From Comamonas odontotermitis (lineage in GTDB: Bacteria; Pseudomonadota; Gammaproteobacteria; Burkholderiales; Burkholderiaceae_C): a stretch of 24,000 bases of DNA. The stretch spans positions 76,864 through 100,863 of the forward strand of contig NZ_JBEBNZ010000015.1 in assembly GCF_040396735.1 (NCBI RefSeq). The letters run 5' to 3'. Of the stretch, positions 1,350 through 22,774 are shown piece by piece. The stretch's first letter is position 1, and each line of letters opens with the position of its first letter. A program made the position numbers and the translations under genes. The notes below the pieces were generated by a model. That model worked only from the letters and a program-made list of their open reading frames with translations, searched no databases and was not told where the DNA came from.

Positions 1350-1422
1350 ACAGTACGCCATCAAAGAATAGCGATCAACGCAATCGCAGAGCGCACCCGA
1401 CATAAAAGCGAAGGAGACATAG

Positions 1423-2394: not shown

Positions 2395-2402
2395 GAGGTC
2401 TC

Positions 2403-2729: not shown

Positions 2730-2730
2730 T

Positions 2731-3977: not shown

Positions 3978-4033
3978 CGCCCTGAGCGGTTTCGCTGGTT
4001 CCATGTCACGCATTCAAGCAACGAACAACTGAA

Positions 4034-4987: not shown

Positions 4988-5737
4988 TCAATGTGCGACA
5001 GCGTCCTGCCGTCCCGCGCCCAGATAGGTATCGATGATGCGCTGGTCGTGCAGCAGATCGCGTGCATTGCCGCTGAGTGCAACGGCGCCCATCTCCAGCA
5101 CATAGGCGCGGTCTGCCACCTTCAGCGCAGCGCGCGCATTCTGTTCCACCAGCAGCACCGATACGCCGCGATCACGCAGCGATGCCACCACCTGCAGCAC
5201 CTCGCGCACAATCAGTGGTGCCAGGCCCAGCGATGGCTCATCGAGCATCAGCAGGCGCGGCTTGGCCATCAGTGCGCGGCCAATGGCCAGCATCTGCCGC
5301 TCGCCGCCCGACAGCGTGGATGCCATCTGCGCACGGCGCTCCTGCAGGCGCGGAAAGATGTCAAACACCTCCTGCAGGCGCGCTCCCTGGTCACGCTCGC
5401 CCTTGCGCCACAGCGAGAATCCGCCCAGCCGCAGATTGTCTTCCACCGACATCTCGCCAAACAGTTCACGCTTCTCCGGCACCAGCCCTACGCCATGCGA
5501 CACCATGGCCTCCACCGTGGGGCGAGCGATCACGCCGCCCGACAGGGATACCTGACCCTTGGAGGGCAGCAGACCCATGGCCGCCGACAGCAAGGTTGTC
5601 TTGCCCGCGCCATTGGGGCCGATCACGGTCACAATCTCTCCTGCCGCCACATGCAGATCGACCTGGTGCACGGCTTCCACCGGCCCGTACGATACGCACA
5701 ACTGCGACAGCTGCAACAAGTGAGGGGTGCTGCTCAT
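4988..5737 (-). CDS. HAAT-family ABC transporter ATP-binding protein (LivF-like)
   Basis: Walker A GPNGAGKTT, signature LSGGERQML, Walker B LLMLDEPSLGL. The ATGA overlap (5734-5737) with the upstream gene indicates translational coupling. Confidence 0.92.
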   Translation of the reverse strand: MSSTPHLLQLSQLCVSYGPVEAVHQVDLHVAAGEIVTVIGPNGAGKTTLLSAAMGLLPSKGQVSLSGGVIARPTVEAMVSHGVGLVPEKRELFGEMSVEDNLRLGGFSLWRKGERDQGARLQEVFDIFPRLQERRAQMASTLSGGERQMLAIGRALMAKPRLLMLDEPSLGLAPLIVREVLQVVASLRDRGVSVLLVEQNARAALKVADRAYVLEMGAVALSGNARDLLHDQRIIDTYLGAGRQDAVAH

Positions 5738-7626: not shown

Positions 7627-8651
7627 TCTTCTTCCTCCACATGGCGGCTGTTGCGCGATCTCCACCACAGCACCGGAATAATCATCGCAAACACCAGCAC
7701 CTCCTTGTAAGCGCTGGCCCAGAAGGTGGAAAAGGACTCCAGCAGGCCCACCAGCAGCGCGCCTGCCAGTGCCAGCGGATAGCTGGCAAGACCGCCAATG
7801 ATGGCCGCCACAAAGCCTTTGAGCCCTACCATGAATCCGGTGTCGTAATACACCGTGGTAAGCGGTGCGATCAGCAAGCCAGAGATGGCGCCGATCAAGG
7901 CAGCGAGGGCAAAGCTCAGATCACCCGCCAATGCGGTTGGAATGCCCATCAGGCGCGCGCCTACCCGGTTGATGGCTGTTGCGCGCAAGGCCTTGCCGAG
8001 CATTGATCGTTCAAAAAACACGAACAGCGATATCACCAGTACCAGCGCAACACCAAGCACCACCAGGGACTGGCCCGAAATGGAAATATCCGCAATGTCG
8101 AACTTGGATTCCGAGAAGGGCGTGGTGCGCGAGCCCTCTGCACCAAAGAACAGCAGACCCAGGCCCACCAGCACGCCATGAAGCGCGACCGAAATGATGA
8201 GCAACAGCAGCACGGAAGCATTTGCCACCGGCCGGTACGCCACACGGTAGAGCAACGGGCCCATGGGCATCACCAGCACCAAGGCAGTGATCGACTGCAG
8301 CAGCAGCGAACTGGGCTTGACGCCCAAAGCCAGCACCGCCGCCACGGCGGGAAAGCCTACGCACCACAGCAGGGTTGCGGGCCAACTGCCGCCCTGGCCG
8401 GAGCGGGCACGCCACAGCTCCGCCACCAGCGCAACGGCAGCCATCGCCAACAGCAGCCACAACGTGGACGGCGTCTTGCCCGCCTGCATCATGGCCATGG
8501 TGAGCGCGCCATAGGCAACAAACTCTCCCTGCGGAATGAAAATGATGCGGGTAACTGAAAACACCAGCACCAGGGCCACCGCCATCAGCCCGTAGATGGC
8601 GCCATTGACGATGCCGTCCTGCCCCAGCAGCAAGGCAATTTGCAAATCCAT
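7623..8651 (-). CDS. HAAT-family ABC transporter permease (LivH-like)
   Basis: The start is trimmed to the ATG at 8651 (MDLQIALLLGQDGIVNGAIYGLMAVALVLVF, matching the usual LivH N-terminus). The GTG extension to 8708 in the ORF track runs through an intergenic hairpin. The protein is hydrophobic and multi-spanning throughout. Confidence 0.88.
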   Translation of the reverse strand: MDLQIALLLGQDGIVNGAIYGLMAVALVLVFSVTRIIFIPQGEFVAYGALTMAMMQAGKTPSTLWLLLAMAAVALVAELWRARSGQGGSWPATLLWCVGFPAVAAVLALGVKPSSLLLQSITALVLVMPMGPLLYRVAYRPVANASVLLLLIISVALHGVLVGLGLLFFGAEGSRTTPFSESKFDIADISISGQSLVVLGVALVLVISLFVFFERSMLGKALRATAINRVGARLMGIPTALAGDLSFALAALIGAISGLLIAPLTTVYYDTGFMVGLKGFVAAIIGGLASYPLALAGALLVGLLESFSTFWASAYKEVLVFAMIIPVLWWRSRNSRHVEEEE

Positions 8652-8800
8652 AGTCGACTTTCGAAAACGCGGAAAGATGAAACACCCCGGAGCCGCCTTG
8701 CGGCGCACCGCAAGGGAAACTGCGGCCCCATCAGCAAAACGGCTCTTGCTGACCGTCTCGCAGATGGGGCCGCGCCTGTTTCATGCGTTGCAGGCGTATA

Positions 8801-9949
8801 TCAGGGTTGGTACTTCCAGGTGCCGTTTTCGATCTTGACCATCACCACACCATTCTGGATGCCGAGGTGGTCAGTGGGTGACATGGAGAAAATACCGTGT
8901 GCACCAGGCACATTCTTGGTCTGCTCCAGGGCATCGCGCAACGCCGCGCGGAACTCCGGTGTACCAGGCTGCGCCTTTTTCAGCGCCTCGGGCACAGCAG
9001 CGAACAGGATCTTTCCTGCATCCCATGCATGGGCGCCAAAAGTGGCCGCAGTGCCCTTGCCATACTTGCCTTCATAGGCCTTGACGTAATCCACGCCCTC
9101 TTTCTTGACCGGGTTGCTGTCAGGCAATTGATCGGCCACCAGCACCGGGCCCGCAGGCAGGAAGGTGCCTTCCACGTCCTTGCCGCCTACGCGCAGAAAA
9201 TCGGCATTGGCCACACCGTGGGTCTGGTAGTACTTACCCTTGTAGCCGCGCTCCTTGAGGGTTTTCTCGGGCAGGGCCGCTGGTGTGCCCGAGCCCGCCA
9301 CCAGCACCGCATCGGGCTTGGCAGCCATCAGCTTCAATGCCTGACCGGTCACGGACGTGTCGGCGCGCGAGAAGGCCTCGGTCGCCACGATCTTCAGGCC
9401 CTTGGCTTCAGCGGCCTTTTTGAATTCCTGCAACCAGCTCTCGCCATAGGCATCGTTGAAGCCGATGTAGCCGACGGTCTTGACGCCACTCTTGGCCATA
9501 TGGTCTGCAATGGCGCCAGCCATCAGCCCGTCGTTCTGGGGCGTCTTGAAGACCCATTTCTTCCTGTCATCCATCGGCTCGATGATCTTCGCCGAAGCAG
9601 CCAGGGTAATCATGGGTGTCTTGCCTTCTGCCACCACGTCGATCATTGCCAGCGAATTGGGCGTGATGCTGGAGCCGATGATGATGTCGGCCTTGCTCTC
9701 GCTGATCAGCTTGCGGGTGTTGGAGACGGCTGCGGTGGTGTCGGACGCATCATCGAGAATGATGTAGTTGACCTTCTGCCCACCGATGGTCTGCGGCATC
9801 AGCGCAATCGTGTTTTTCTCCGGGATGCCCAGTGATGCAGCCGGGCCGGTTGCCGACAGCACCACACCCACATTGATGTCGGCCCAGGCCGAACCCCACG
9901 CTGCAGCCAGTGCAGCAGCAACAATTCCCAGTTTTGCAAAGCGCTTCAT
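8801..9949 (-). CDS. Periplasmic solute-binding protein of the LivJ/K (type I PBP) family; ligand probably an aromatic/aryl-acetate acid rather than a branched-chain amino acid
   Basis: SD AAGGAGA lies 7 nt upstream. Sec signal MKRFAKLGIVAAALAAAWGSAWA|D. INVGVVLSATGPAASLG...DDASD is typical of Leu/Ile/Val-binding-like proteins. The ligand assignment is inferred from genomic context only. Confidence 0.85.
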   Translation of the reverse strand: MKRFAKLGIVAAALAAAWGSAWADINVGVVLSATGPAASLGIPEKNTIALMPQTIGGQKVNYIILDDASDTTAAVSNTRKLISESKADIIIGSSITPNSLAMIDVVAEGKTPMITLAASAKIIEPMDDRKKWVFKTPQNDGLMAGAIADHMAKSGVKTVGYIGFNDAYGESWLQEFKKAAEAKGLKIVATEAFSRADTSVTGQALKLMAAKPDAVLVAGSGTPAALPEKTLKERGYKGKYYQTHGVANADFLRVGGKDVEGTFLPAGPVLVADQLPDSNPVKKEGVDYVKAYEGKYGKGTAATFGAHAWDAGKILFAAVPEALKKAQPGTPEFRAALRDALEQTKNVPGAHGIFSMSPTDHLGIQNGVVMVKIENGTWKYQP

Positions 9950-10097
9950 ATATTGTCTCCTTGAAGATGGCTCTTACTAAACGACCCCTACGATTGCGAT
10001 GATGGCTGCGATGCAATGGGCAATGTCGGTGCGAGATCCATGGCTATCACAACGGCACAACAATTTAACTTATTAAATAATTTTTCACCAGTATTTT

Positions 10098-10706
10098 TCA
10101 GCGTTTCTGACCTGGGGTTTGCACTGCCCCCACACCTCCCAGAAACAGATCGGCCACAACAGGTGCCATGGTGTCGTAGCTCAAGGCGCCATGGGGCTTG
10201 AGCCAGGTGAACATCCAGTTCATCATGCCGAACAACAGCATGGTGAGCGCCTTGGTCAGCCCGGCCTGGTCCGTCTGGGGGCGCAGCTCACGCACAGCGC
10301 GTGCCACGCTTTCCACCACCTGGCGTTCACCGTTCAGAATCCGCTCCTGATCCTCTTCATTCAAGAAACGCACATCCTCGGTCAGCACCCGGTGTTCGTT
10401 GATGGCATGGGCATACTCCTGTACAAAGCGCTCAATCAACAAGCGCAGGCGAGGCTCGGCAGGCAGTTGCTGATCCACCCCGTCCACCAGCGCAATCAGC
10501 CGCGTGATATGCGCATCGCAAATCTCGAGCAACAACGCATTCTTGTCCTTGAAGTAATGGTAGAGCGCCGGCTTGGACAGGCCGCAGGCACTCGCCACCT
10601 CATTCATCGAGGTCGCCGCGTAGCCTGCGCGGGCAAACAGCTCCGCAGCCTGGTGCAGGATATGTTCTCTCTGGTCTTCGTAACCGGGTGCCCGTCCTCG
10701 AGCCAT
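10098..10706 (-). CDS. paaR: TetR-family transcriptional regulator, probable PaaR-type repressor of the paa genes
   Basis: N-terminal HTH ILHQAAELFARAGYAATSMNEVASACGLSKPALYHYFKDK. The gene sits 65 bp downstream of paaE on the same strand, which is where TetR-type paa regulators sit in betaproteobacterial clusters as I recall. Confidence 0.7.
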   Translation of the reverse strand: MARGRAPGYEDQREHILHQAAELFARAGYAATSMNEVASACGLSKPALYHYFKDKNALLLEICDAHITRLIALVDGVDQQLPAEPRLRLLIERFVQEYAHAINEHRVLTEDVRFLNEEDQERILNGERQVVESVARAVRELRPQTDQAGLTKALTMLLFGMMNWMFTWLKPHGALSYDTMAPVVADLFLGGVGAVQTPGQKR

Positions 10707-10771
10707 GGCGTCTTTCCTTGTTGATGGTGGTGGCGCTCATCATGCCTCAAACCATTCCCCCCTACGGGGTG

Positions 10772-11857
10772 TCAGCGCTCATCAAATGAGAGCACAACGC
10801 GCTCTGTCAACGGGTGCGCCTGGCAGGTGAGGATGAAACCATCGGCCACCTCCTTTTTATCCAAGGCGAAGTTGCGCTCCATCCGCACCTCGCCTTCCAC
10901 CAGCTTGGCCCGGCAGGTGCCGCATACACCGGATGTGCATGAATACGGCACCTCCATGCCAGCAGCAGATGCCGCATCGAGAATGCTGGGTTGCCCTTTG
11001 GTAAACGGAATCTCGCGCGACAGGCCATCGCGGATGATCACAATGCGCGCGGCCTCGGCGTCTCCTGGCTTGGCTTCGTGCACCACAGCGCCCACGGTGC
11101 CTGCAGCCTGCAGCGCCACGCCGAAGCGTTCGATATGGATGCGCTCTTCCGCAACCCCTGCGGCCAGCAAGGCAGCTTCGGCCTCGTCGTTCATCTGGAA
11201 AGGGCCGCAGACATAGACATGGTCGATGCGACCAGCCGGCACCACGCTTGCCAGAAATTCACCGATCTTTTCACGGTTCATCGTACCGCTGTTGATCGGC
11301 GCATCGGTGTGCTCGTCGGAGAACACGTGCTGCAGCACCAGACGCGACATGTAGCGGTTCTTGAGGTCTTCGATCTCTTCCTTGAACATGGTCGAGCGCA
11401 ATGCGCGGTTGCCATAGATCAGGGTGAACCGGCTCGCGGGCTCGCGCGCCAGCACGGTCTTCATGATCGAGAGAATTGGCGTGATACCGCTGCCACCGGC
11501 AATGCCCACATGGTGGCGGGCGGCATCGCTTTCGATGGGTACAAAGAACCGCCCTTGCGGCGCCATCACCTGGATGGTGTCACCAGGCTGCAGGTGTTCG
11601 TTGATCCAGTTGGAGAACACGCCACCGCGCACCTTGCGCACGCCCACGCGCAACTCGCCGTCATCCACGCCTGCGCAGATCGAATAGGAACGGCGCAGGT
11701 CCTGGCCATCGATATTCGCGCGCAAGGTCAGGTACTGGCCCTGGGTAAAGCCAAATACTTCGCGCAGGTCCGTTGGCACGTCAAACGACACCACCACCGC
11801 CTCTTGCGTATCCGGCTCGATCTTGCGCACGCGCAACGGATGGAAACTGATGCTCAT
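10772..11857 (-). CDS. paaE: Phenylacetyl-CoA 1,2-epoxidase reductase subunit (FNR-like FAD/NAD domains plus plant-type 2Fe-2S)
   Basis: RRSYSICA (FAD binding), GGSGITP (NAD binding), and a C-terminal CTSGVCGTCRAKL...C ferredoxin cluster motif. It follows paaD by 15 nt. Confidence 0.93.
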   Translation of the reverse strand: MSISFHPLRVRKIEPDTQEAVVVSFDVPTDLREVFGFTQGQYLTLRANIDGQDLRRSYSICAGVDDGELRVGVRKVRGGVFSNWINEHLQPGDTIQVMAPQGRFFVPIESDAARHHVGIAGGSGITPILSIMKTVLAREPASRFTLIYGNRALRSTMFKEEIEDLKNRYMSRLVLQHVFSDEHTDAPINSGTMNREKIGEFLASVVPAGRIDHVYVCGPFQMNDEAEAALLAAGVAEERIHIERFGVALQAAGTVGAVVHEAKPGDAEAARIVIIRDGLSREIPFTKGQPSILDAASAAGMEVPYSCTSGVCGTCRAKLVEGEVRMERNFALDKKEVADGFILTCQAHPLTERVVLSFDER

Positions 11858-11872
11858 AGTGGATTCCTCAAC

Positions 11873-12406
11873 TCAAATAGGCTTGAAGTGCTCAAAGGGT
11901 TCGCGGCAAGCCAGGCAGCGGTACAAGGCTTTGCAGGCAGTCGCACCAAAGGCGGACAGCCGCTCTGTCTGTGCGCTTGCACAGCGCGGGCATGCGGGTG
12001 CTGCGGTATTCATGCTGCGGCCGAAGAACCGGATCGGCACTGCGGCATCCTTGTCCACCATGCCTGGCGGCGCGATGCCGTACTCGGCCAGCTTGCGCCT
12101 GCCTTCTGCACTGATCCAGTCCGTCGTCCAGGCCGGTGCGCGGCGCAAGGTCACCCACGCGGGGCCCAGGCCTGCGGCATCGATGGCGGCCAGCACATCA
12201 CTCTCGATCACCTCGGTCGCAGGGCAGCCCGAGTAGGTCGGCGTCAGCACGATCTCCAGCCCCGCCTCCCCGGCAACCACGTCGCGCACAATGCCCAAAT
12301 CGCACACCGATACGGCAGGCACCTCGGGGTCCAGCACGGTGTGGAGCACTTTCCAGGCGGCACTCACCCGGGCGTCCTGCGCAAGCTCAGTTGCCTGCAT
12401 CACCAT
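11873..12406 (-). CDS. paaD: Phenylacetyl-CoA 1,2-epoxidase subunit PaaD (DUF59 domain plus C-terminal Cys-rich Zn-ribbon)
   Basis: VLDPEVPAVSVCDLGIV...TPTYSGCPA and C-terminal CPRCAS...CKALYRCLACREPFEHFK. The start is either ATG 12406 or ATG 12400; the second overlaps the paaC stop as TGATG. Confidence 0.9.
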   Translation of the reverse strand: MVMQATELAQDARVSAAWKVLHTVLDPEVPAVSVCDLGIVRDVVAGEAGLEIVLTPTYSGCPATEVIESDVLAAIDAAGLGPAWVTLRRAPAWTTDWISAEGRRKLAEYGIAPPGMVDKDAAVPIRFFGRSMNTAAPACPRCASAQTERLSAFGATACKALYRCLACREPFEHFKPI

Positions 12407-13197
12407 GCTCCTGCGGGAAAGGCGCGCTGCAGATATTGCATATCGGCCAGGATGAAGCCCATGTGTTCGCTGTGGCGACCGCGCTTGCCTTCGCTCAGAA
12501 ACTGCGTCGCTGCAGGCTCTGCCAACTGTGCCTCAGCCAGCACTTCGCGCATTTGTGCATACCAGTCATCCTTCAATGCGGACCAGCGCGGGCCCCAGCC
12601 AGCATCTGCGGCGGCCTCGTCAGCTGCGTCGGTATCAAACAGCTCTGGCGCATAGCGCCACAGTTGCTTGATCGCAGCTTCCATGCGGGTGCGTGACTCG
12701 TCCGTACCATCACCCAGCCGCACCACCCAGTCTGCGGAGTGCTGCTGGTGGTAGCGCACTTCTTTCACGGCCTTGGCGGCAATGGCACGCAGTTCTTCAT
12801 CGCAGCTCTCCACGCTCACCCGCTCCCACAGCAGCTTCAGCCACGTGGCGAGCATGGTGTTGCGCAACACGGCGAATGCAAAATCCCCGCGCGGCAACTC
12901 GGCCAGCGTCACATTGAAGTAATCGCGTTCATTGCGCAGGAAAGCCAACTGGTCTTCGTCATGGCCACCCCCTTCCACCTGCCCGGCCCGTGTGAGCACG
13001 GCGCGCGCCTGCCCGATCAGATCGAGCGCAATGTTGGACATGGCGATGTCCTCTTCCAGGACCGGTGCATGGCCACACCATTCACTGATGCGTTGGGCCA
13101 GGATCAGACAGCTGTCACCGATGCGCAGCAGGTATTGCGTCGCGGGCGTGAGGGCAAGTTGTATGGATTCAGCAGGCATGGTTTCTCCCGGGATCAC
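12400..13197 (-). CDS. paaC: Phenylacetyl-CoA 1,2-epoxidase structural subunit PaaC
   Basis: Collinear with remembered E. coli PaaC: LRIGDSCLILAQRISEWCGHAPVLEEDIAMSNIALDLIGQAR, KEVRYH, LWRYAPELFD, HSEHMGFILADMQYLQRAFPGAW. The start is GTG 13197 (GTGA overlap with the paaB stop) or ATG 13179. Confidence 0.9.
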   Translation of the reverse strand: MIPGETMPAESIQLALTPATQYLLRIGDSCLILAQRISEWCGHAPVLEEDIAMSNIALDLIGQARAVLTRAGQVEGGGHDEDQLAFLRNERDYFNVTLAELPRGDFAFAVLRNTMLATWLKLLWERVSVESCDEELRAIAAKAVKEVRYHQQHSADWVVRLGDGTDESRTRMEAAIKQLWRYAPELFDTDAADEAAADAGWGPRWSALKDDWYAQMREVLAEAQLAEPAATQFLSEGKRGRHSEHMGFILADMQYLQRAFPAGAW

Positions 13198-13490
13198 ATG
13201 TGATCCACTTCCTTGGGCAACTGGAAGAAGGTGGGGTGGCGATACACCTTGTCTTCCGCAGGATCGAAATACATGTCCTTGTCACCGGGATCGCTCGCCA
13301 CAATCTGTTCGGACTGCACCACCCACACGCTGCAGCCTTCCTGCCGACGGGTGTACACATCACGCGCCATCTGGATGGCCATTCTGGCGTCCGCTGCATG
13401 CAGGCTGCCGCAGTGCTTGTGGTCCAGGCCTGCCTTGCTGCGCACAAATACCTCCCACAGAGGCCATTCCTTTTTGATGCTGTCGTTCAT
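13194..13490 (-). CDS. paaB: Phenylacetyl-CoA 1,2-epoxidase subunit PaaB
   Basis: [30 protein letters not shown]...[17 protein letters not shown]...[15 protein letters not shown] closely matches remembered E. coli PaaB. ATGA overlap with the paaA stop. Confidence 0.95.
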
Positions 13491-14503
13491 GCGGCCTCCT
13501 TGATGGCGCGACTCTGTTGTTTGCGGGCGTGGGCCAGCGCTGCTTCGCGCACCCAGGCCCCGTTGTCCCAGGCTTGCACACGGGCACCCAACCGCTCCTG
13601 GTTGCAGGGCCCGTCTCCGGCGATCACGCGCCAGAATTCATCCCAGTCGATGGGCCCGTGGTCATGGGCACCACGCGCCTCATTCCATTTCAGCTCCGGA
13701 TCCGGCAGAGTCACGCCCAGAATCTGTGCCTGCTCCACGGTCGCGTCGATGAACTTCTGGCGCAGCTCATCATTGGAGACACGCTTGATGCCCCAGCGCA
13801 TCGATTGCGCACTGTTGGGTGATTGGTCATCGGGTGGGCCGAACATCATGATCGACGGCCACCACCAGCGGTTGACCGCGTCCTGCACCATGTCCTTCTG
13901 TGCCTGGGTGCCGTTCTTCATCATCGTGAGCAGCGCATCAAATCCTTGGCGCTGGTGAAAGCTCTCCTCGCGGCAGATGCGGATCATGGCGCGTGCATAC
14001 GGGGCATACGAGCAGCGGCAGATCGGCACCTGGTTCATGATGGCCGCGCCATCCACCAGCCAGCCGATGGTGCCGATATCGGCCCAGGTCAGCGTGGGGT
14101 AGTTGAAGATGGAGCTGTACTTGGCCTTGCCGCTGTGCAGCGCGTCGAGCATCTGGTCACGCGAGGTGCCCAGGGTTTCAGCCGCCGCGTACAGATACAG
14201 GCCATGGCCGCCCTCGTCCTGCACCTTGGCCAGCAGAATGGCCTTGCGCTTGAGGGTGGGCGCACGGCTGATCCAGTTGCCCTCGGGCAGCATGCCGACG
14301 ATCTCCGAATGCGCGTGCTGGCTGATCTGGCGCAGCAAGGTCTTGCGGTAATGGTCGGGCATCCAGTCCTTGGCTTCGATGAACTCGCCCGCGTCGATGC
14401 GCTCATCAAAGCGCTCCTGCAGGTGCGCCTCTTGGGCGGAGCGAACGGGCTTGTTGCCGTCTCCCGGCTCTTTACCCATGGTGTCCATGGCTTGGGTGTA
14501 CAT
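13487..14503 (-). CDS. paaA: Phenylacetyl-CoA 1,2-epoxidase catalytic (di-iron) subunit PaaA
   Basis: The start is trimmed to ATG 14503, which is preceded by SD GAGGAGG; the TTG at 14518 in the ORF track is unlikely. [55 protein letters not shown] and [14 protein letters not shown] match E. coli PaaA. Confidence 0.95.
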
Positions 14504-14542
14504 GGTGAACCTCCTCAAGTGTGTGGGTCGTACTGGATTTGC

Positions 14543-16999
14543 TCAATAGCGGAGCACCTGAACCGATGTGGCGCGGCGATCCACTTCGGCAGCCGTCAGC
14601 GCTTCGCGCTTGCAGCCAAAGTTCTTGAACAGCTCCATCTGATCGGCGTAATGCGGCGATTTGGTGCCATCCGGCGCAACAAAGCCACTTTGGCCGGGTG
14701 GTGCAGCAGTGCACAGGCTCACGCCCTTGGCACCGAGCACCACCTTGTCGTTCTGGGTACCGCGGTTCATATAGCTTGGCAGCGTGAGCAACTCATCGGC
14801 ATTGGCTTGCGGCGCACCGATGAAGTTCTTGGTCAGAAAAACATGCCGGGTGACAGGCGTACGCCATGCGGCGGTATCCGCGCCATGGCGCTGCTCCAAC
14901 GCTTTCACGGCTTCGGCCAGCGTAGCGCGCAGTACTGCGTTCTTATCCCTGCCATTGAAGAAGTCAAAGGTCTGCGGCACACCCGCCTTGGCACCTAGGA
15001 GCGCGTTGTAGACCAGCTTGAGCCCATTGCCTGGCCGAATGCTCGCCACCTGCGTATCGCCTGCATAGCCGCCACCTGCATAGGCGGCAAACACCTCAGG
15101 CGGCAGATCATCGGCCAATACGGTCTTGAAAAGAACCGGCAGCCAGGTCATCATCAGCGTCGTGGCCGGGCTGTCATAGCTGCCGCGCTCCGATGGGTCT
15201 TCATTGAGCATGTTCCAGCCAGCCAGAAGTTGCGCTGCGCGGCGGGCCGGATCATTGGGCGGCAGGCCGCGCGTGGCCTCGGCGACAAAGGGCAGCAGAT
15301 AGCGCGCATTGGTGTCTGCGTAGGCGGTGGCACGGTTGAGGTCCCACAACTCCTCGGGGGTGAGACGGGCCTTGGCATTGAGCCTGGCGCTGAATTCGTG
15401 CACACGGTCCACCACCGAATAGTTGCCGCCGTCACTCACGGCGCCGGGTGCCGACTGGTTGTTCCAGTTCACCACATAGCCCTGCTCCGGATTGAGCACC
15501 TGCGGGTCCTCGCGGAAGGGCCGGATGCCTTCCCACTCCATGGAACCGTCGCCCAATGCAGGAAGGCGGATGTCCTGGTGTGCAGGGCGGATCGGCAGGC
15601 GACCGGGCGACACGTAACCGATGTTCCCTTCGGTGTCTGCGTAATACCAGTTGATGGTGATGGCCACGCGCGAAGCCTGGGCCAGCCATTGCTGCCAGTT
15701 CTGCGCCCGCATCGAGTGGATCCAACCCAGCAGGGACTCCAGCTCGTAGCCGTCCCAACTGCGCTTCATCGAGTAGGCAACGCCGTTGGGTATGTCGAAG
15801 TTGGTGACCGTGCCATGCACCGTCGAAAAAATATCCAGGCTCTGGTCGGCTTCTGCCTTGACCTTGATGGTCTCGGTACGCTTGGCCATGGCCCGCATCG
15901 TGCCGTTGAAACGGTACTCATGTGGATTGGCCGGGTTCAGCTGCTCCTGGTACATGTCGTTCACATCCAGCGGGCCCGCTGTGGCGCCCCAGGCGATCTT
16001 GCCGTTGGTGCCGAACAGCACCACAGGGTGCGCAAAGGGGGTGTTTCCGGTCACATCGAAACCTGCGCCGTGCAGGCCGATGCCAAACACGTATGACGGG
16101 TTGAACCAGTTGAACTGCGGCCCATTGATGAAGACCGTGCTGCCGTCACTCGTCTTTTGGGGGCCGGCGATCCAGAGGTTGCTGGCAATTGGGCGCTGCC
16201 AGGGCTGCGCAACGCCTCGGTGCGCGGCATCCATTTCGTCGCGCGCTGCCAGCAATTCTGGCGAGACGGGCGCAAGCCTGGCCAGGTGCCCGTCATTCGC
16301 TACAACCTGCCGGATGGCACCATTGATGCGAGGCACCGTGGTAGGAGCCAGGAGGTCTTCCACCCAGCGGATCTGGTCGAACAACTGCCTGCCCTGCACA
16401 TCGCCCTTGGCCTTGCGCAACTGCTCCAGCAGGCGCAGATTGGCGAGCTCGCTGCTCACATTGGAATAGCGGTTGGCCATGGTGCCGACCCAGATCATGG
16501 CCACGTCGTAGCCCGTCCAGTCGGCCTTGGGCTCAAAGCCGGCGTCGATGAACTGCCTTGGCAACAGGGTGGCACGCGCTGCCAGCACCTCGTTCACGCG
16601 GGCATTGAAGCCGGCGGCATAGCCATCGAAGATGGCCTTGTCGTCTGGTGACAGACGGGCCATCTGGCCTCTGATCGATTCCGGCGAGAAACTGGCACGG
16701 CTGCCCTTGTCGAGCGCGACGTAGGCAGGCCCCATTACTTCGGAGACGGTGCCCAGTACAGCGCGGCGCGCCATCTCCATCTGGAAAAGGCGGTCTTGCG
16801 CCACTGCATAGCCAAAGCCATGGAACAGTCCACGCACGTCATTGGCGTATACATGCGGCACACCAAAGTCATCACGCTTGATGGTGACCTGGCCATGCGT
16901 CGTTGCAGCGCCCATCGGGGCAATCGCGGTCGAGGCACAGCCCACGGCCAGCAATGCGGCAGCAGTGATCAGGGAAATGCGGCGGAGCGTGAAGTTCAT
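14543..16999 (-). CDS. pac: Penicillin G acylase-type Ntn hydrolase (phenylacetyl-amide amidohydrolase precursor: signal, alpha chain, spacer, beta chain)
   Basis: The 818-aa protein is collinear with remembered E. coli PGA. Alpha chain: DDFGVPHVYANDxxGLFHGFGYAVAQDRLFQMEMARR, VGTMANRYS. The beta chain begins at the Ser273 codon (16181-16183): SNLWIAG...INGPQF, GIGLHGAGFDVTGNTPFAHP, ITINWYYADTEGNIGY, NWNN, PPGQSGFVAPDG..HY.DQ. The N-terminus MNFTLRRISLITAAALLAVGC is an export signal. Confidence 0.9.
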   Translation of the reverse strand: MNFTLRRISLITAAALLAVGCASTAIAPMGAATTHGQVTIKRDDFGVPHVYANDVRGLFHGFGYAVAQDRLFQMEMARRAVLGTVSEVMGPAYVALDKGSRASFSPESIRGQMARLSPDDKAIFDGYAAGFNARVNEVLAARATLLPRQFIDAGFEPKADWTGYDVAMIWVGTMANRYSNVSSELANLRLLEQLRKAKGDVQGRQLFDQIRWVEDLLAPTTVPRINGAIRQVVANDGHLARLAPVSPELLAARDEMDAAHRGVAQPWQRPIASNLWIAGPQKTSDGSTVFINGPQFNWFNPSYVFGIGLHGAGFDVTGNTPFAHPVVLFGTNGKIAWGATAGPLDVNDMYQEQLNPANPHEYRFNGTMRAMAKRTETIKVKAEADQSLDIFSTVHGTVTNFDIPNGVAYSMKRSWDGYELESLLGWIHSMRAQNWQQWLAQASRVAITINWYYADTEGNIGYVSPGRLPIRPAHQDIRLPALGDGSMEWEGIRPFREDPQVLNPEQGYVVNWNNQSAPGAVSDGGNYSVVDRVHEFSARLNAKARLTPEELWDLNRATAYADTNARYLLPFVAEATRGLPPNDPARRAAQLLAGWNMLNEDPSERGSYDSPATTLMMTWLPVLFKTVLADDLPPEVFAAYAGGGYAGDTQVASIRPGNGLKLVYNALLGAKAGVPQTFDFFNGRDKNAVLRATLAEAVKALEQRHGADTAAWRTPVTRHVFLTKNFIGAPQANADELLTLPSYMNRGTQNDKVVLGAKGVSLCTAAPPGQSGFVAPDGTKSPHYADQMELFKNFGCKREALTAAEVDRRATSVQVLRY

Positions 17000-17049
17000 G
17001 GGGCTGGCCTGTGGCAGGGAATCGAGTTGAACAATGGTCTGTCAGGCCA

Positions 17050-18366
17050 TCAACGGGGCCGCTTGTCGAACACGCGCCGGGCCTTGCCGGTCTGCGTGCG
17101 CTCAATGCCGTCCGGATCGAACACCCGCACCGTCGTGGAGATGCCCACCAGCGTCTTGATGCGGTGCTGCACCCATTGCGCGATTTCAGTGCGCTCGCCA
17201 TCGGCCATGCCGCGCAGCGCGGGCACCAGTTCGCAATGCACCTCCACAGTGTCCAGCAGCCCTTCGCGGTTGATATGCAGTTGGTACACGCCGGTGAGCT
17301 TCTGGTGCGCCAGCACAATCTCTTCCACCTGGGTGGGAAAGACATTGACGCCACGGATGATCATCATGTCGTCGCTGCGCCCCACAATCTTTCCCATGCG
17401 GCGGAAGGAGCGCGCCGTCGGCGGCAGCAGGCGCGTCAGATCACGTGTGCGGTAGCGGATGATGGGCATGGCCTCCTTGGACAGGGAGGTAAAGACCAGC
17501 TCGCCTTCTTCGCCATCGGCCACCACTTCGCCGGTATCCGGGTTGATGATCTCCGGGTAGAAATGGTCTTCCCAGATGACCGGGCCGTCCTTGGTTTCCA
17601 CGCATTCACTGGCCACGCCGGGGCCCATCACTTCAGAAAGGCCATAGATATCCACGGCATCGAGCCCTGCCTTGTGCTCGATATCCTTGCGCATGGCTTC
17701 GGTCCAGGGTTCGGCGCCAAAGATGCCGATCTTGAGCGAGCTGGCGGCAGCGTCCAGCCCCTGGCGCTGGAACTCTTCCACCAGCACCTGCATGTAGCTG
17801 GGCGTCACCATGATGATGTCAGGCTTGAAATCGGTGATCAGTTGCACCTGCTTTTCCGTCTGTCCGCCCGACATGGGCACCACGGTGCAGCCGGCGCGTT
17901 CTGATCCGTAGTGCGCCCCCAGGCCACCAGTGAACAGGCCGTAGCCATAGGCCACATGCACCATGTCGCCCTGGCGCCCACCGGCTGCACGAATGGAACG
18001 CGCCACCAGGTCAGCCCAGGTATTGATGTCCTTGAGCGTGTAGCCCACTACGGTCGGCTTTCCTGTCGTGCCGCTGGAGGCATGCACACGTGCCACCTCG
18101 TTGCGTGGCACGGCAAACATCCCGAAGGGGTAGTTGTCGCGCAACTCTTTCTTGGTGGTGAATGGAAACTTGGCCAGGTCCTGGAGACTCTTCAGATCCG
18201 ACGGATGCACGCCTTTGGCATCAAAGGCCTGGCGGTAGTGCGGTACGTTGTCATAGGCATGCTGCAGCGACCAGCGCAGGCGCTGCAGCTGCAAGGCCTC
18301 GATTTCGTCGCGGCTGGCCGTCTCTATGGGGTCGAACACGCTGGCTGGGGAAACTCGGTCATTCAT
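17050..18366 (-). CDS. paaK: Phenylacetate-CoA ligase
   Basis: The start is trimmed to ATG 18366 (GAGG 9 nt upstream). FDPIETASRDEIEALQLQRLRWSLQHAYDNVPHYRQAFD matches the E. coli PaaK N-terminus. AMP-binding motif SSGTTGKPT. At 438 aa it is close to the 437 aa of E. coli PaaK. Confidence 0.95.
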   Translation of the reverse strand: MNDRVSPASVFDPIETASRDEIEALQLQRLRWSLQHAYDNVPHYRQAFDAKGVHPSDLKSLQDLAKFPFTTKKELRDNYPFGMFAVPRNEVARVHASSGTTGKPTVVGYTLKDINTWADLVARSIRAAGGRQGDMVHVAYGYGLFTGGLGAHYGSERAGCTVVPMSGGQTEKQVQLITDFKPDIIMVTPSYMQVLVEEFQRQGLDAAASSLKIGIFGAEPWTEAMRKDIEHKAGLDAVDIYGLSEVMGPGVASECVETKDGPVIWEDHFYPEIINPDTGEVVADGEEGELVFTSLSKEAMPIIRYRTRDLTRLLPPTARSFRRMGKIVGRSDDMMIIRGVNVFPTQVEEIVLAHQKLTGVYQLHINREGLLDTVEVHCELVPALRGMADGERTEIAQWVQHRIKTLVGISTTVRVFDPDGIERTQTGKARRVFDKRPR

Positions 18367-18393
18367 GTTGGGAACCTCTAGGCATCTTGACAA

Positions 18394-18852
18394 TCAGTCT
18401 TGGGCGGGTACGGTCTGCTTGCCCTTCATGCGGTATGAACGCCCCCGGAACAGGGCGATCACCTCTCCCGCCCCATTGCAGATCCGTACGTCGTACACAC
18501 CGGTCCGACCCGCCTGTGAAACCTCTCTGGCTTCGGCCACCAGCACGTCGCCCGGCTTGCCGGGCGCTACAAAATCCACCGACAGGCCCGATGCCACCGT
18601 CATTTCGTTGTAGCTGTTGCAGGCGTAGGCAAAGGCGGTGTCGCCCAAGGTCGTGATATAGCCCCCATGGCAGATGTCAAAGCCATTGAGCATGTCGCTG
18701 CGCACCGCCATCTCGATGGTGGCCTCGCCCGGCGCCATGTGGGTGACGCGCATGCCCAGCCCCTGCGCAGCACGGTCACGGGCAAACATCCCGTCGCGCA
18801 CGCGCTCGGCGAGCTGTTGCGAAGTCATCATGTTGGAAGCGTTGGCATCCAT
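18394..18852 (-). CDS. paaI: Hydroxyphenylacetyl-CoA thioesterase (hotdog fold)
   Basis: The start is trimmed to ATG 18852 (GGAG 8 nt upstream); the 208-aa version in the ORF track overlaps paaG. MLNGFDICHGGYITTLGDTAFAYACNS...GRTGVYDVRI...ALFRGRSYR matches E. coli PaaI. Confidence 0.9.
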   Translation of the reverse strand: MDANASNMMTSQQLAERVRDGMFARDRAAQGLGMRVTHMAPGEATIEMAVRSDMLNGFDICHGGYITTLGDTAFAYACNSYNEMTVASGLSVDFVAPGKPGDVLVAEAREVSQAGRTGVYDVRICNGAGEVIALFRGRSYRMKGKQTVPAQD

Positions 18853-18880
18853 GGTCAATCTCCAAAACAAGCAGGACGCA

Positions 18881-19711
18881 TCAGCGGTCGCTGAAAGCAG
18901 GTGCGCGCTTGGCCATGAAGGCCGCAACCCCTTCCAGGTAGTCGTGGGCGCTGCCCAGCCGCTTTTGCTCGCGCGCTTCCAGTGCGAGCGATGCGGAAAA
19001 TTCGAGGTCTTGCGCCGCATCCATGGCGCGGCGCGTGGTCACGAGGGCCTGGGTCGGCATGGAAGCAAGGCGGCTGGCAAGGATTTCCACCTCCGCCAGA
19101 AAGGCGGTATCCGGCACACACCGCCATATCAAGCCGATGCGCTCTGCCTCGGCTGCGGGCAGCTTGTCACCCAGCAATGCCAGGCCCAGTGCGCGCTGGC
19201 GTCCCACCAGGCGCGGCAGCAGCCAGGTGCCGCCACTGTCGGGCAGCAAGCCAATCTTGGTAAACGCCTGGATGAAATTGGCCGACTCTGCCGCCACCAC
19301 CAGATCACAGCACAGCGCGATATTGGCGCCCGCGCCAGCCGCCACGCCATTGACCGCTGCAATCACCGGAACAGGCATGGCGCGCAACTGCTCGCACAGG
19401 GGCCGGTAGTGGCGCTCGATCAGCACGCTCAAATCCGTAGGCTCCTGGCCTGCGGGCGCTGGTGCCGCACCCTCATCGGCCAGATCCTGCCCTGCGCAGA
19501 AACCGCGCCCGGCCCCAGTCAGCACCACGCAGCGCACGTCGGCATCGGCAGCCGCTGCCTGCAAGGCAGAGGCCAGCGCGCGGTGCATGGCCTGCGTGAA
19601 GCTGTTGAGCGCCTGCGGGCGATTGAGCGTAATGATGCATACGCTGCCCCGGCGCTCCTGCAGCACCAGCGGTTCGCCGGATGGATTCGTGGTTGGGCTC
19701 GCTTCTGGCAT
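18881..19711 (-). CDS. paaG: 1,2-epoxyphenylacetyl-CoA isomerase (crotonase family)
   Basis: ITLNRPQALNSF, VLTGAGRGFCAGQDL, AAVNGVAAGAGANIAL, GLLPDSGGTWLLPRLVG and EGVAAFMAKRAP match E. coli PaaG. The start is placed at ATG 19711; the TTG 19777 extension is unlikely. The start remains uncertain because the SD is weak. Confidence 0.88.
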   Translation of the reverse strand: MPEASPTTNPSGEPLVLQERRGSVCIITLNRPQALNSFTQAMHRALASALQAAAADADVRCVVLTGAGRGFCAGQDLADEGAAPAPAGQEPTDLSVLIERHYRPLCEQLRAMPVPVIAAVNGVAAGAGANIALCCDLVVAAESANFIQAFTKIGLLPDSGGTWLLPRLVGRQRALGLALLGDKLPAAEAERIGLIWRCVPDTAFLAEVEILASRLASMPTQALVTTRRAMDAAQDLEFSASLALEAREQKRLGSAHDYLEGVAAFMAKRAPAFSDR

Positions 19712-19783
19712 GTCCGTGCTTTCTACAACGTGGTACCTGGCTGGCTTTTGTCGTTGATGTCGATCAAAATTCAGCAAATCTCT

Positions 19784-19812
19784 TTGACCGACCGTTCGGT
19801 AAATAATATACT
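19784..19812 (+). promoter_or_regulatory. Candidate sigma70 promoter for paaN (TTGACC-17 nt-TATACT)
   Basis: -35 TTGACC at 19784-19789, a 17-nt spacer, and -10 TATACT at 19807-19812. It lies in the AT-rich divergent intergenic region about 140 nt upstream of the paaN ATG. Confidence 0.45.
19787..19800. promoter_or_regulatory. Candidate PaaR (TetR-type) operator: imperfect palindrome ACCGA-CCGT-TCGGT
   Basis: ACCGACCGTTCGGT has 5-bp perfect outer arms (ACCGA/TCGGT). It overlaps the -35/spacer of the paaN promoter candidate and the predicted +1 region of the paaG promoter candidate. On the other strand it reads CGAACGGTCGGT, one mismatch from the Thermus PaaR consensus as I remember it (CNAACGNNCGTTNG). 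Confidence 0.45.
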
Positions 19813-19833
19813 GATTCTCAGGTGTTGATGCAA
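19805..19833 (-). promoter_or_regulatory. Candidate sigma70 promoter for the paaG-led operon (TTGCAT-17 nt-TATATT)
   Basis: On the minus strand, -35 TTGCAT is at 19833-19828, followed by a 17-nt spacer and -10 TATATT at 19810-19805. This -10 overlaps the + strand -10 by 4 bp. Confidence 0.45.
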
Positions 19834-19951
19834 GTCATAAAAGACTCAGAGAAAACCCGCAGTCGCCAAATAATTTGCCTTGGCTCATGCGGTGGCCTTC
19901 TGGCGTCCATTGCAGCATTCGCACCCCACCACCACCCACCCGGAGACATGC

Positions 19952-21607
19952 ATGACCTTGTTTGACAAGCACCAAGCCTTGCTGGACCAAGCCGTCCGCG
20001 CCGCCAAGACCCGCGAATACTGGAGCGCCTTTCCCGAAAACCCTTCGCCCAAGGTGTATGGCGAAACGGCGCAGGCTGACGGCCAGGCCGCCGCCCAGGC
20101 ATATTTCAACAGCGACTTTCCGCTTGAGCAGACCGCTACACGCGGCTGGGTGGCGACCGAGCAATCGCCGTACGGCGTGGCGTTGGATGTGCGCTACCCC
20201 GATTGCGCACCAGCAGATCTCGTGGCTGCGGCACAGGCGGCGGAGCCCGGCTGGCAGGCGCTGGGCGCGCAAGGCCGTGTCGGCCTGCTGCTGGAGGCGC
20301 TCACCCGCATCCACCAGCGCACGCATGAGATCACCCATGCCGTCATGCTGACCAGTGGCCAGGGCCCGATGATGGCCTTCCAGGCAGGTGGCCCGCATGC
20401 GCAGGACCGCGCACTCGAAGCCATTGCCTATGCATGGATGGCGCAAGCTGACATTCCTGCATCCGCGCACTGGGAAAAGCCGCAGGGCAAGAACCCGCCC
20501 CTGGTCATGCAAAAGCATTTCGAGGTGGTGGGACGCGGCATCGGCCTGGTGCTGGGTTGCGCCACCTTCCCCACCTGGAACACCTATCCCGGCCTGTTCG
20601 CCAGCCTGGCGACCGGCAACCCGGTCATCGTCAAGCCGCACCCCAATGCCGTGCTGCCCATGGCGGTCACCATTGCCATCCTGCGTGATGTGCTGCGCGA
20701 GCAAGGCCTGGACCCCAACGTGGTACAACTGGGCCTGTGTCCCCATAACGAAGACACGCAGGCGCTCGCAACCAATCCTGCGGTGGCGCTGATCGACTTT
20801 ACCGGCAGCACCGCCTTTGGCAACTGGCTGCTGGACAATGCCAAGCAGGCACGCGTGTATGCGGAAATGGCTGGGGTCAACACTGTCATCCTCGAATCGG
20901 CCAGCGATTACGCGGCCACCATGAAGAACCTCGCCTTCACGCTGGCGCTGTACAGCGGACAGATGTGCACCACCACGCAGAACATCCTGATTCCGCAGGA
21001 CGGTATCGCCACCAACGAAGGGCACAAGAGCTTTGACCAGATCGGCCAGGACCTGGGCGCAGCGCTGGCCTCCCTGCTGGACGATCCGCGCGTGGCCACT
21101 GCGGTACTGGGGGCGATTGCATCGCCTGCCACATCCGAGCGAATTGCGGCTTCTGCGCAAGTAGGCCGCGTGGTACACGCTTCACAAAAGATAGCGCACC
21201 CGCAGTTTCCGCAAGCGGTATTGCAGACGCCGCAACTGGTCGCGCTGACCGAGGCCGACGGCGCCATCTACAACCAGGAATGCTTTGGCCCGGTGGCGTA
21301 TCTGGTGGCGGTCAAGGATGGTGCAGCAGCCCTGTCCGTTGCGCAGAATACCCTGCAGCAGCATGGCGCGCTCACGCTGGGCGTGTACTCTCAGGACCCG
21401 GCATATATCGATCAAGCCGTGCGGGTCAGCCTGCGCGGCAGGGTGGCGCTGTCCATCAATCTGACACAGGGCATTTACGTCAACCAGTCGGCGGCGTTCT
21501 CCGATTTCCATGCCACCGGCGGCAATCCGGCTGCCAACGCCAGCTACACCAACCTGGCCTTTGTGGCAGACCGCTTTGTGGTGGTGCAACGCCGCGCTCA
21601 CGTGTAA
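19952..21607 (+). CDS. paaN: PaaN-type ring-opening aldehyde dehydrogenase (3-oxo-5,6-dehydrosuberyl-CoA semialdehyde dehydrogenase; ALDH domain only)
   Basis: The start is trimmed to ATG 19952 (SD GGAGA 5 nt upstream). The 551-aa ALDH-superfamily protein has the catalytic Cys block LYSGQMCTTTQNI and FTGSTAFG. It is divergent from paaG. No MaoC/hotdog domain is appended, unlike E. coli PaaZ. Confidence 0.85.
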   Translation: MTLFDKHQALLDQAVRAAKTREYWSAFPENPSPKVYGETAQADGQAAAQAYFNSDFPLEQTATRGWVATEQSPYGVALDVRYPDCAPADLVAAAQAAEPGWQALGAQGRVGLLLEALTRIHQRTHEITHAVMLTSGQGPMMAFQAGGPHAQDRALEAIAYAWMAQADIPASAHWEKPQGKNPPLVMQKHFEVVGRGIGLVLGCATFPTWNTYPGLFASLATGNPVIVKPHPNAVLPMAVTIAILRDVLREQGLDPNVVQLGLCPHNEDTQALATNPAVALIDFTGSTAFGNWLLDNAKQARVYAEMAGVNTVILESASDYAATMKNLAFTLALYSGQMCTTTQNILIPQDGIATNEGHKSFDQIGQDLGAALASLLDDPRVATAVLGAIASPATSERIAASAQVGRVVHASQKIAHPQFPQAVLQTPQLVALTEADGAIYNQECFGPVAYLVAVKDGAAALSVAQNTLQQHGALTLGVYSQDPAYIDQAVRVSLRGRVALSINLTQGIYVNQSAAFSDFHATGGNPAANASYTNLAFVADRFVVVQRRAHV

Positions 21608-22662: not shown

Positions 22663-22774
22663 GCATCCTCTTTGTGCACACCCGCAGTGGTGATTTCCAA
22701 CCGCCCATTGTGTACCAGTCTGGCATCACGAGCGGCTTCTTCGGCTTTGCGCTGTCTTACCGTCGATAGAGCAT

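Follow-up and report, generated by a model that had tools for sequence, protein, structure and literature searches.

The stretch of DNA analysed here (the window) comprises 24,000 nt of Comamonas odontotermitis contig NZ_JBEBNZ010000015.1 and carries an operon for phenylacetate degradation (paa). Between paaK and paaA of this operon lies pac, a gene encoding an N-terminal nucleophile (Ntn) hydrolase of the penicillin G acylase (PGA) type. The genes and gaps of the array are as follows.

14543..16999, minus strand: pac, 818-aa precursor of a PGA-type Ntn hydrolase (Pfam PF01804), ATG start, stop codon at 14543-14545
17000..17049, minus strand: paaK-pac gap, 50 nt, C-rich, without Shine-Dalgarno sequence, terminator or promoter consensus
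14504..14542, minus strand: pac-paaA gap, 39 nt, holding the Shine-Dalgarno sequence of paaA (GAGGAGG) at 14510-14516, six bases before the ATG
17050..18366, minus strand: paaK, phenylacetate-CoA ligase (TIGR02155), 438 aa as called, longest open reading frame to 18393
18394..18852, minus strand: paaI, thioesterase (gene call; TIGR02286, 158 bits against a cut-off of 119)
18881..19711, minus strand: paaG, enoyl-CoA hydratase family isomerase (Pfam ECH_1; TIGR02280), which opens the array
10772..14503, minus strand: paaABCDE, phenylacetyl-CoA 1,2-epoxidase genes (Pfam, NCBIfam and gene calls)
10098..10706, minus strand: gene of a TetR-family, PaaR-like regulator (Pfam TetR_N and TetR_C_24)
4988..9949, minus strand: Liv-type ATP-binding cassette (ABC) importer with a solute-binding protein (SBP, 8801-9949), a permease (7623-8651), a permease-ATPase fusion (5734-7626) and an ATPase (4988-5737), all from Pfam
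19952..21607, plus strand, divergent from paaG: paaN, ring-opening aldehyde dehydrogenase (TIGR02288, 810.6 bits against a cut-off of 579)

Read along the minus strand from 19711 to 4988, the array runs paaG-paaI-paaK-pac-paaA-paaB-paaC-paaD-paaE-TetR-SBP-permease-permease/ATPase-ATPase, as assigned with Pfam, NCBIfam and gene calls on identical metagenome contigs. From paaG to paaE the genes overlap or are separated by at most 50 nt (at most 15 nt within paaABCDE), followed by 65 nt between paaE and the TetR gene and about 148 nt on each side of the SBP gene. PaaK (722.5 bits against a cut-off of 646), PaaA (TIGR02156, 534 bits against 280; ATG at 14503), PaaI and PaaN all exceed their NCBIfam equivalog cut-offs, the identity of PaaB, PaaC, PaaD and PaaE comes from Pfam, and PaaG has its best match in TIGR02280 with 328.6 bits, slightly below the cut-off of 345. 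The same-strand ligase and epoxidase genes, PaaG, PaaI, the ring-opening enzyme and the TetR regulator thus mark the array as a paa operon.

An earlier note, made from the letters of the window alone, had placed an 818-aa open reading frame on the strand of the paa genes, 50 bp past the paaK stop and 39 bp ahead of the paaA ATG, with no stem-loop and T-tract terminator in either gap. Open reading frame and translation agree with this placement. In a consensus scan of positions 9900-20000, neither pac-flanking gap held a terminator-like or sigma-70-like site; promoter and terminator scans of this kind are crude consensus matches, which weak internal promoters can escape. Folding led to the same result, as the RNA of neither gap was more stable than its shuffled versions (z = -1.7 for the paaK-pac gap, z = +1.1 for the pac-paaA gap) and neither holds a U-tract, and Rfam gave no match across the whole window. 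A terminator or hidden RNA element in the paaK-pac gap was considered, as a 7-bp stem with a 30-nt loop can be drawn there, but was rejected for its z value, its lack of a U-tract and its lack of conservation.

The contrast in translation signals that the earlier note had described, pac without a Shine-Dalgarno sequence and paaA with GAGGAGG, holds for the window and extends well beyond it. The twelve bases ahead of the pac ATG (17000-17011) read CAGGCCAGCCCC and contain no Shine-Dalgarno sequence, and the pac leaders are C-rich without a recognisable one in all 11 orthologues (equivalent leaders in L006-L018), while each adjoining downstream paaA carries AGGAG or AAGGAG. This contrast inside one operon is thus conserved, and it is plausible that the missing Shine-Dalgarno sequence serves a purposely low translation of pac. 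In two of the loci (L016:6041-6105 and L018:12490-12557) the pac-paaA gap holds two GC-rich hairpins, CCTGCC..GGCAGG and GGGCGCC..GGCGCCC, without a U-tract; these are absent from the window and may be repetitive extragenic palindrome (REP)-like or mRNA-processing elements.

The protein encoded by pac belongs to the PGA family over its whole length. Pfam Penicil_amidase (PF01804) matches residues 37-807 over profile positions 1-674 of 675 (3.3e-132), and the best PDB matches are all PGAs: the engineered circularly permuted PGA 7reo (8e-197), the beta chain of the Alcaligenes faecalis enzyme (1.5e-166), and the enzymes of P. rettgeri (1e-145) and E. coli (1e-138). D-succinylase (2e-53), cephalosporin acylases (about 1e-24) and PvdQ (about 1e-13) trail far behind, and in bits the ranking is PGA 659, D-succinylase 185, cephalosporin acylase 88 and PvdQ 51. 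The NCBIfam family of PvdQ-type acyl-homoserine lactone (AHL) acylases, NF051460, reached 77.8 bits against a cut-off of 950, over residues 13-138 only. The assignment to the PGAs rather than to PvdQ-like acylases, proposed in the earlier note, is therefore borne out, as are the motif blocks that it had named (S273-N-L-W, N292-GPQF, I449-NWYYAD and P768-GQSGF). In the beta chain, identity is 47% to the A. faecalis and 41% to the E. coli enzyme, and in a neighbour-joining tree the protein falls within a large clade apart from the classical enzymes of E. coli, Providencia and Alcaligenes. From the alignments to solved PGAs the precursor was divided as follows.

16937..16999, minus strand: signal peptide with a probable lipobox (MNFTLRRISLITAAALLAVG followed by C21), in which Cys21 would be the lipid-modified first mature residue
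16325..16936, minus strand: alpha chain, about residues 22-225, with an approximate C-terminal boundary (PDB alpha-chain alignments cover 35-224)
16184..16324, minus strand: spacer (linker) peptide, about residues 226-272, lying between the alpha and beta alignments, poorly conserved and variable in length
14546..16183, minus strand: beta chain, residues 273-818, from alignment to 3k3w_B, 1cp9_B and 1kec_B

In characterised PGAs the spacer peptide is removed by autoproteolysis. The alignment has no gaps over beta 1-245, so that residues of Pac could be mapped directly onto PGA numbering. S273 corresponds to residue 1 of the 3k3w, 1cp9 and 1kec beta chains, the Ser1 nucleophile, and is invariant both in 20 and in 15 homologues. 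The further catalytic residues are also present (beta-Gln23 as Q295, Ala69 as A341, Asn241 as N513 and Arg263 as R532); Q295, N513 and R532 are invariant in the 15-sequence alignment, and A341 is Ala across the PGA-type clades and Val in a paralogue group flanked by SBP genes, described below. The phenylacetyl pocket is identical at alpha-Met142 (M174), beta-Pro22 (P294), Phe24 (F296), Tyr31 (Y303), Phe57 (F329), Trp154 (W426) and Ile177 (I449). It differs by conservative changes at alpha-Phe146 (Y178), beta-Val56 (L328), beta-Ser67 (A339) and beta-Phe71 (Pro); A. faecalis PGA has the same residues at the three beta-chain positions. Alpha-Arg145 is retained as R177, and of the side-chain ligands of Ca2+, three are conserved as E184, D345 and D348 (alpha-Glu152, beta-Asp73 and beta-Asp76). 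The equivalent of beta-Asp252 falls within an indel region, where a nearby D523 is nearly invariant and the local alignment is ambiguous.

Given this active site and the position of the gene within the operon, it is likely that Pac acts as a periplasmic 'feeder' enzyme of the paa operon which frees phenylacetate from N-phenylacetyl amides. A different function would be that of a quorum-quenching acylase acting chiefly on acyl- or aryl-homoserine lactones such as phenylacetyl-homoserine lactone, in which case the linkage to paa would only dispose of the aryl-acyl product. Enzymes of the PGA family are able to cleave AHLs (a related example is given in PMC11903891), literature reports describe growth on AHLs by Variovorax, a main host of the paaK-pac-paaA arrangement described below, and the predicted periplasmic location would suit a diffusible signal. 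However, the similarity to PvdQ is marginal by both of the scores given above, the acyl pocket is of the compact phenylacetyl kind found in PGA and not a deep aliphatic one, no luxI/luxR-type or lactonase genes were found among the Pfam and NCBIfam annotations of the window, and aliphatic AHL acyl chains have no need of paa genes. We therefore regard quorum quenching as an improbable main function of Pac.

The pocket residues were also considered as a means to discriminate paa-linked from unlinked homologues, but all PGA-type clades share the signature and only a separate paralogue group differs. This second paralogue of the PGA family, with about 50% identity, is present in Comamonadaceae and other groups (L050, L052-L055 and L083-L085; match at 10001-12360 in L050, L053 and L054 and at 1849-4209 in L055). 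It is flanked on both sides by Liv-type SBP genes in four Variovorax or metagenome-assembled genome (MAG) loci (L050, L053-L055) and not at L052 and L083-L085. Since its acyl pocket is altered (alpha-M142I, beta-F24Q, beta-Y31F/I, beta-A69V and beta-71S), it presumably has a different substrate; two SZAS MAGs hold both pac and the SBP-flanked paralogue. The homologue of Alcaligenes sp. WGS1538 (L083) was rejected as an A. faecalis-type PGA, as it is this other paralogue with alpha-M142I and beta-F24Q.

Subsequently, the distribution of the pac-paa linkage was analysed with a 20-sequence profile in one genome per GTDB species, and the window proteins were mapped onto the resulting 80 loci. The identical Pac protein was found only on Logan metagenome contigs, with unchanged gene order, and the nearest genome is that of Comamonas odontotermitis Dant 3-8 (97% identity, identical synteny). 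A survey of genomes for pac between paaK and paaA had been proposed in the earlier note; the arrangement recurs in at least 11 species-level genomes or MAGs, namely C. odontotermitis, six Variovorax species or strains and four MAGs, and is not due to chance. Across the 11 orthologous loci the paaK-pac gap measures 18-50 nt and the pac-paaA gap 20-70 nt. Loci with a Pac at least 73% identical and with sufficient flank have the order paaK-pac-paaA, with the exception of two Herbaspirillum species (77-79% identity), which have paaABCDE-paaN-paaG-...-paaI-pac-paaK, again with pac beside paaK. In the neighbour-joining tree the Herbaspirillum pac is nested within the Variovorax clade, which suggests transfer and re-insertion into paa.

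Linkage to paa is also found in a separate alphaproteobacterial pac clade, whose members share 47-51% identity with the window protein. In Amaricoccus macauensis the order is paaABCDE-paaZ-pac, with a gap of 68 nt, and in Paracoccus denitrificans DSM 413 (L080:9875-14604) pac is directly followed by a paaX-type repressor gene, paaJ and paaABCDE; in three other Amaricoccus and three other Paracoccus/Ensifer loci, paaABCDE lies within about 3 kb of pac. In total, 21 of the 80 loci are linked to paa. Among these 80, the homologues of Marinobacter, Rhodococcus, Thauera, Kocuria and others showed no paa linkage, and the pac contexts of Rhodococcus and Marinobacter gave no clue to the substrate. A Marinobacter homologue (L167:1-9568; 56% identical, with a lipobox) directly follows genes for a carboxyltransferase, an enoyl-CoA hydratase, a biotin carboxylase, an HMG-CoA-lyase-like protein and an acyl-CoA synthetase, and this liu/atu-like neighbourhood hints that relatives may feed other acyl-CoA pathways.

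The corresponding junction without pac was surveyed by a metagenome scan with the PaaK of the window, which yielded 80 loci. In about 31 close relatives paaK is directly followed by paaA, with a gap of 10-155 nt that is mostly shorter than 50 nt. A locus without pac (L086) and one with pac (L007), whose PaaK proteins are both 88% identical to that of the window, are otherwise collinear, and one metagenome contig of the scan (L092) has pac in the junction. Therefore, pac sits inside an otherwise tightly packed, pre-existing operon, and transcription of paaABCDE would have to pass through pac unless a promoter came in together with pac. The physical link between acylase and operon, which had been put forward from the window alone, is thus supported by the pac-less relatives. 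The GC content of pac and its GC content at third codon positions (GC3) equal those of its neighbours, and the synonymous divergence (dS) to L007 is 0.69 for pac, 0.79 for paaK and 0.61 for paaA. A recent foreign insertion was ruled out on these grounds. The gene is under purifying selection with a ratio of nonsynonymous to synonymous divergence (dN/dS) of 0.10-0.19, comparable to its neighbours.

These data also bear on the idea that pac is a passenger, transcribed from a promoter of its own independently of paa and acting on unrelated amides, with the synteny inherited as a block. Numerous homologues share this pocket without having paa genes nearby, weak internal promoters can escape the scans, and the betaproteobacterial paaK-pac-paaA loci form one clade and so may count as a single evolutionary event. 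On the other hand, pac became linked to paa in two pac clades and in at least three different architectures, and the Herbaspirillum copy, though nested in the Variovorax clade, occupies a different paa slot that is again next to paaK. Moreover, the junction measures 10-50 nt in most pac-less relatives, so that expression of paaABCDE must pass through pac, and purifying selection on pac equals that on paaK. We give the passenger scenario little credence and favour the role of Pac as an enzyme that supplies the operon with phenylacetate.

Identity between the Comamonas-type and the Variovorax/MAG lineages is uneven along the array, with 55-69% for the paaG and paaI products, 73-93% for PaaK, Pac, PaaA, PaaB and PaaE, and 66-84% for PaaC and PaaD, and the operon therefore looks mosaic. 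The position of the regulator gene also varies. In the Comamonas-type array and in V. ureilyticus (L017) it comes after paaE on the same strand, and in most Variovorax/MAG loci it lies upstream and divergent (compared were L006, L007, L009-L012, L015, L016 and L018).

The N-terminus of the precursor reads MNFTLRRISLITAAALLAVG-C21-AS, in which L-A-V-G-C21 fits the relaxed lipobox pattern [LVI][ASTVI][GAS]-C, and the canonical L-A-G-C stands at the same position in all paa-embedded orthologues. Judged by this signal, Pac is predicted to be a periplasmic lipoprotein exported by the Sec pathway and processed by signal peptidase II. Twin-arginine (Tat) export was also considered, as the window protein has L-R-R-I-S-L, but the orthologues have RH, RQ, RP or RS at this place; as the RR pair is not conserved, no Tat signal is claimed. 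The lipoprotein export signal, the wide occurrence in public genomes and the adjoining hpa cluster described below are observations that were absent from the earlier note.

Because hydrolysis is predicted to take place outside the cytoplasm, PaaK can reach the product only after its import. The SBP encoded at 8801-9949 has its closest solved structures in 3sg0, 4dqd, 3tx6 and 3uk0 (E = 1e-104 to 1e-114), which we take to be Rhodopseudomonas palustris SBPs crystallised with aromatic acids bound. The 148-nt gap between the TetR and SBP genes (9950-10097, the minus-strand leader of the SBP gene) contains an unusually AT-rich stretch, AAAAATTATTTAATAAGTTAAATTG, from which the ABC importer may be transcribed or regulated separately.

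To the features of the array a candidate operator can be added, which lies between the divergent paaN and paaG genes.

19787..19800, no strand: palindrome ACCGACCGTTCGGT, candidate PaaR (TetR) operator in the divergent paaN/paaG promoter region

A search with ACCGNNCGNNCGGT returned this site as its sole match in the window. It overlaps or adjoins the region of a TTGCAT-17-TATATT promoter on the minus (paaG) strand, and the palindrome, which presumably resembles published PaaR operators, is found as ACCGAACGGTCGGT 17-85 nt upstream of paaG in most of the orthologous loci examined, with or without pac. It never occurs in the pac-flanking gaps of these loci, and a second PaaR operator near pac or paaA was sought and found neither in the window nor in 12 orthologous loci. 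A TetR homologue is present within the paa clusters of all related loci, and a TetR-type PaaR acting through a promoter inverted repeat has been established in Burkholderia cenocepacia (PMC2770484). The position of the palindrome would fit a single PaaR-controlled promoter for the whole array.

A second catabolic cluster adjoins the array.

87-4867, plus strand, convergent with the end of the paa/ABC array: hpa (homoprotocatechuate meta-cleavage) cluster with HpaE, a TctC-family receptor, a LigB-type extradiol dioxygenase, CHMI isomerase and HpaH

HpaE (partial) scored 713 bits and HpaH 425 bits. This neighbourhood raises the question whether the main substrates of Pac are 4-hydroxyphenylacetyl or other arylacetyl amides or esters, so that the enzyme would serve the hpa pathway as well as paa. 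Such a broader role would be in line with E. coli W, in which pac lies beside hpa, with the ability of E. coli PGA to accept hydroxylated phenylacetyl groups, and with the replacement of alpha-Phe146 by Tyr, which puts a hydroxyl at the rim of the pocket. Yet pac is embedded in paa and not in hpa in every lineage examined, and the hpa genes of the window lie on the strand opposite to pac. Arylacetyl compounds other than phenylacetyl amides are thus a very unlikely choice of main substrate, and we retain the phenylacetyl amides. On the other side of the array, beyond paaN, a Dyp-type peroxidase (178 bits) and a DUF480 protein are encoded on the minus strand at 21718-23464, a pair which is kept in C. 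odontotermitis (L008).

From these observations the following course of events can be proposed. Within a single paaG-I-K-pac-A-B-C-D-E(-paaR-ABC) unit, pac would be co-transcribed with its neighbours, and it would be translated weakly because it has no Shine-Dalgarno sequence. The 818-aa precursor would be exported and probably lipid-anchored at Cys21, and its self-cleavage would expose Ser273 as the nucleophile of the beta chain. In the periplasm Pac would then hydrolyse N-phenylacetyl amides, possibly also esters, and the released phenylacetate would be imported by the aromatic-acid-type ABC system at the end of the array. PaaK would convert it to phenylacetyl-CoA, after which PaaABCDE would attack the ring. 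Phenylacetyl-CoA would also be the expected ligand that frees PaaR from the single operator upstream of paaG, which would give a feed-forward circuit in which a little substrate leads to more acylase, importer and pathway.

Several observations weigh against Pac being a feeder enzyme of the operon. The nearest characterised enzyme is only 47% identical and alpha-Phe146 is replaced by Tyr; no characterised member of the clade of the window pac was found in the searchable literature, with most subscription journals outside it. The pocket signature is also present in paa-unlinked homologues (Marinobacter, Rhodococcus, Thauera), and therefore the pocket alone does not explain the linkage to paa. 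The lipobox of the window protein, A-V-G-C, is slightly off the canonical L-A-G-C, and the ABC importer occurs in pac-less relatives as well and so is not specific to pac. With regard to co-transcription, an internal promoter inside paaK or pac is possible, as the scans are crude consensus matches, and the hairpins in the pac-paaA gap of L016 and L018 could attenuate read-through in those lineages.

Candidate substrates are phenylacetyl-glutamine and phenylacetyl-glycine of animal origin, benzylpenicillin or its penicilloic acid, and, for plant-associated hosts, auxin conjugates of phenylacetic acid (PAA) such as PAA-Asp, PAA-Glu and related amides (PMC4523386, PMC12369477). Pac would possibly offer root-associated bacteria a route to tap these plant PAA-amino-acid conjugates. 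In one locus of the junction survey (L108:5820-7796, plus strand), the paaK-paaA junction is occupied by another kind of secreted hydrolase, about 658 aa long and with a signal peptide (Peptidase_S9, 2.5e-39), which suggests that the junction can host alternative 'feeder' hydrolases. A bolder version of the proposal would take the junction as a conserved 'feeder slot' for exported hydrolases and the auxin storage forms PAA-Asp, PAA-Glu and related PAA-amino acids as the substrates in Variovorax and Herbaspirillum; this we put forward as a doubtful, though not negligible, extension. If it were true, the paa operon would be a dedicated system that de-conjugates and consumes natural phenylacetyl conjugates, rhizosphere bacteria would liberate, sense and remove a plant hormone, and a defined ecological role would be found for PGA-type enzymes, over whose natural function debate has gone on for decades.

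PGA ranks among the enzymes in widest industrial use, yet the scavenging of phenylacetyl compounds is still only 'thought to' be its natural role (PMC9493321). Embedded in the paa operon, this function becomes testable genetically in tractable bacteria, for example Variovorax and Paracoccus denitrificans. The lipoprotein clade, 41-47% identical to the industrial enzymes and with the alpha-F146Y variant, possibly also holds useful biocatalysts. PGA as a peripheral enzyme of the phenylacetyl-CoA catabolon, the PaaX link in E. coli W and the catabolism of penicillin by amidases together with paa are already known, and dozens of public genomes list pac genes under the name 'penicillin acylase family protein'. 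In the searchable literature, which most subscription journals lie outside, no description was found of pac inside a paa operon, of its recurrence in several architectures, of a lipoprotein form or of a comparison with the empty site.

Among characterised enzymes, A. faecalis PGA (3k3w/3ml0) is the closest solved relative (beta chain 560 bits). All beta-chain catalytic and pocket positions tested are identical, including beta-67 Ala and beta-71 Pro, and C763 and C796 of the window protein align with the C-terminal Cys pair of this enzyme, which presumably forms a disulfide. The two differ in that they fall into separate clades of the tree and that the window protein has a lipobox signal peptide. 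At alpha-146 the window protein has Tyr, whereas the alpha chain of 7reo (Kluyvera/E. coli-type) has Phe; the A. faecalis alpha-chain motif we take to be SMANRFS, i.e. also with Phe at alpha-146. The two Alcaligenaceae homologues sampled in the survey (L075 and L083) have no paa gene within ±10 kb, and the A. faecalis pac locus is not among them.

The alphaproteobacterial pac-paa clusters of P. denitrificans DSM 413 and A. macauensis resemble the window in the pocket signature and in the same-strand joining of pac to paa. They differ in the pac clade, in the slot (after paaZ or before paaX-paaJ-paaA), in having AxA-type signal peptides instead of a lipobox and, in Paracoccus, in a PaaX-type regulator. 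In penicillin-catabolising soil bacteria, amidases act together with the paa pathway and the released phenylacetate serves as carbon source (Crofts 2018, as summarised in PMC11446756). The put operon of this system comprises amidases, a beta-lactamase and a major facilitator superfamily (MFS) transporter and is induced by penicillin or benzylpenicilloic acid, not by phenylacetate (PMC11446756). There, the amidases form a separate operon, in contrast to the acylase of the window, which lies inside the paa operon with no beta-lactamase present.

With E. coli W the window shares the family and the catalytic apparatus of the acylase, a nearby hpa cluster (known for E. coli W from the literature) and the proposed scavenging role that feeds paa. 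E. coli PGA has no lipobox and is soluble in the periplasm. The link to paa in E. coli W is regulatory only, since pac is a separate unit repressed by the GntR-type PaaX and controlled through PaaX and phenylacetyl-CoA (PMC9493321), whereas pac of the window is an internal paa gene, its regulator is of the PaaR-like TetR type, and no PaaX was found in the window by Pfam and NCBIfam. Taken together, prior evidence for the role of PGA was regulatory, in that PaaX represses pac in E. coli W, and the conserved and repeated insertion of pac into the paa operon, seen in two pac clades and at least four architectures, constitutes much stronger genetic evidence for a role in scavenging.

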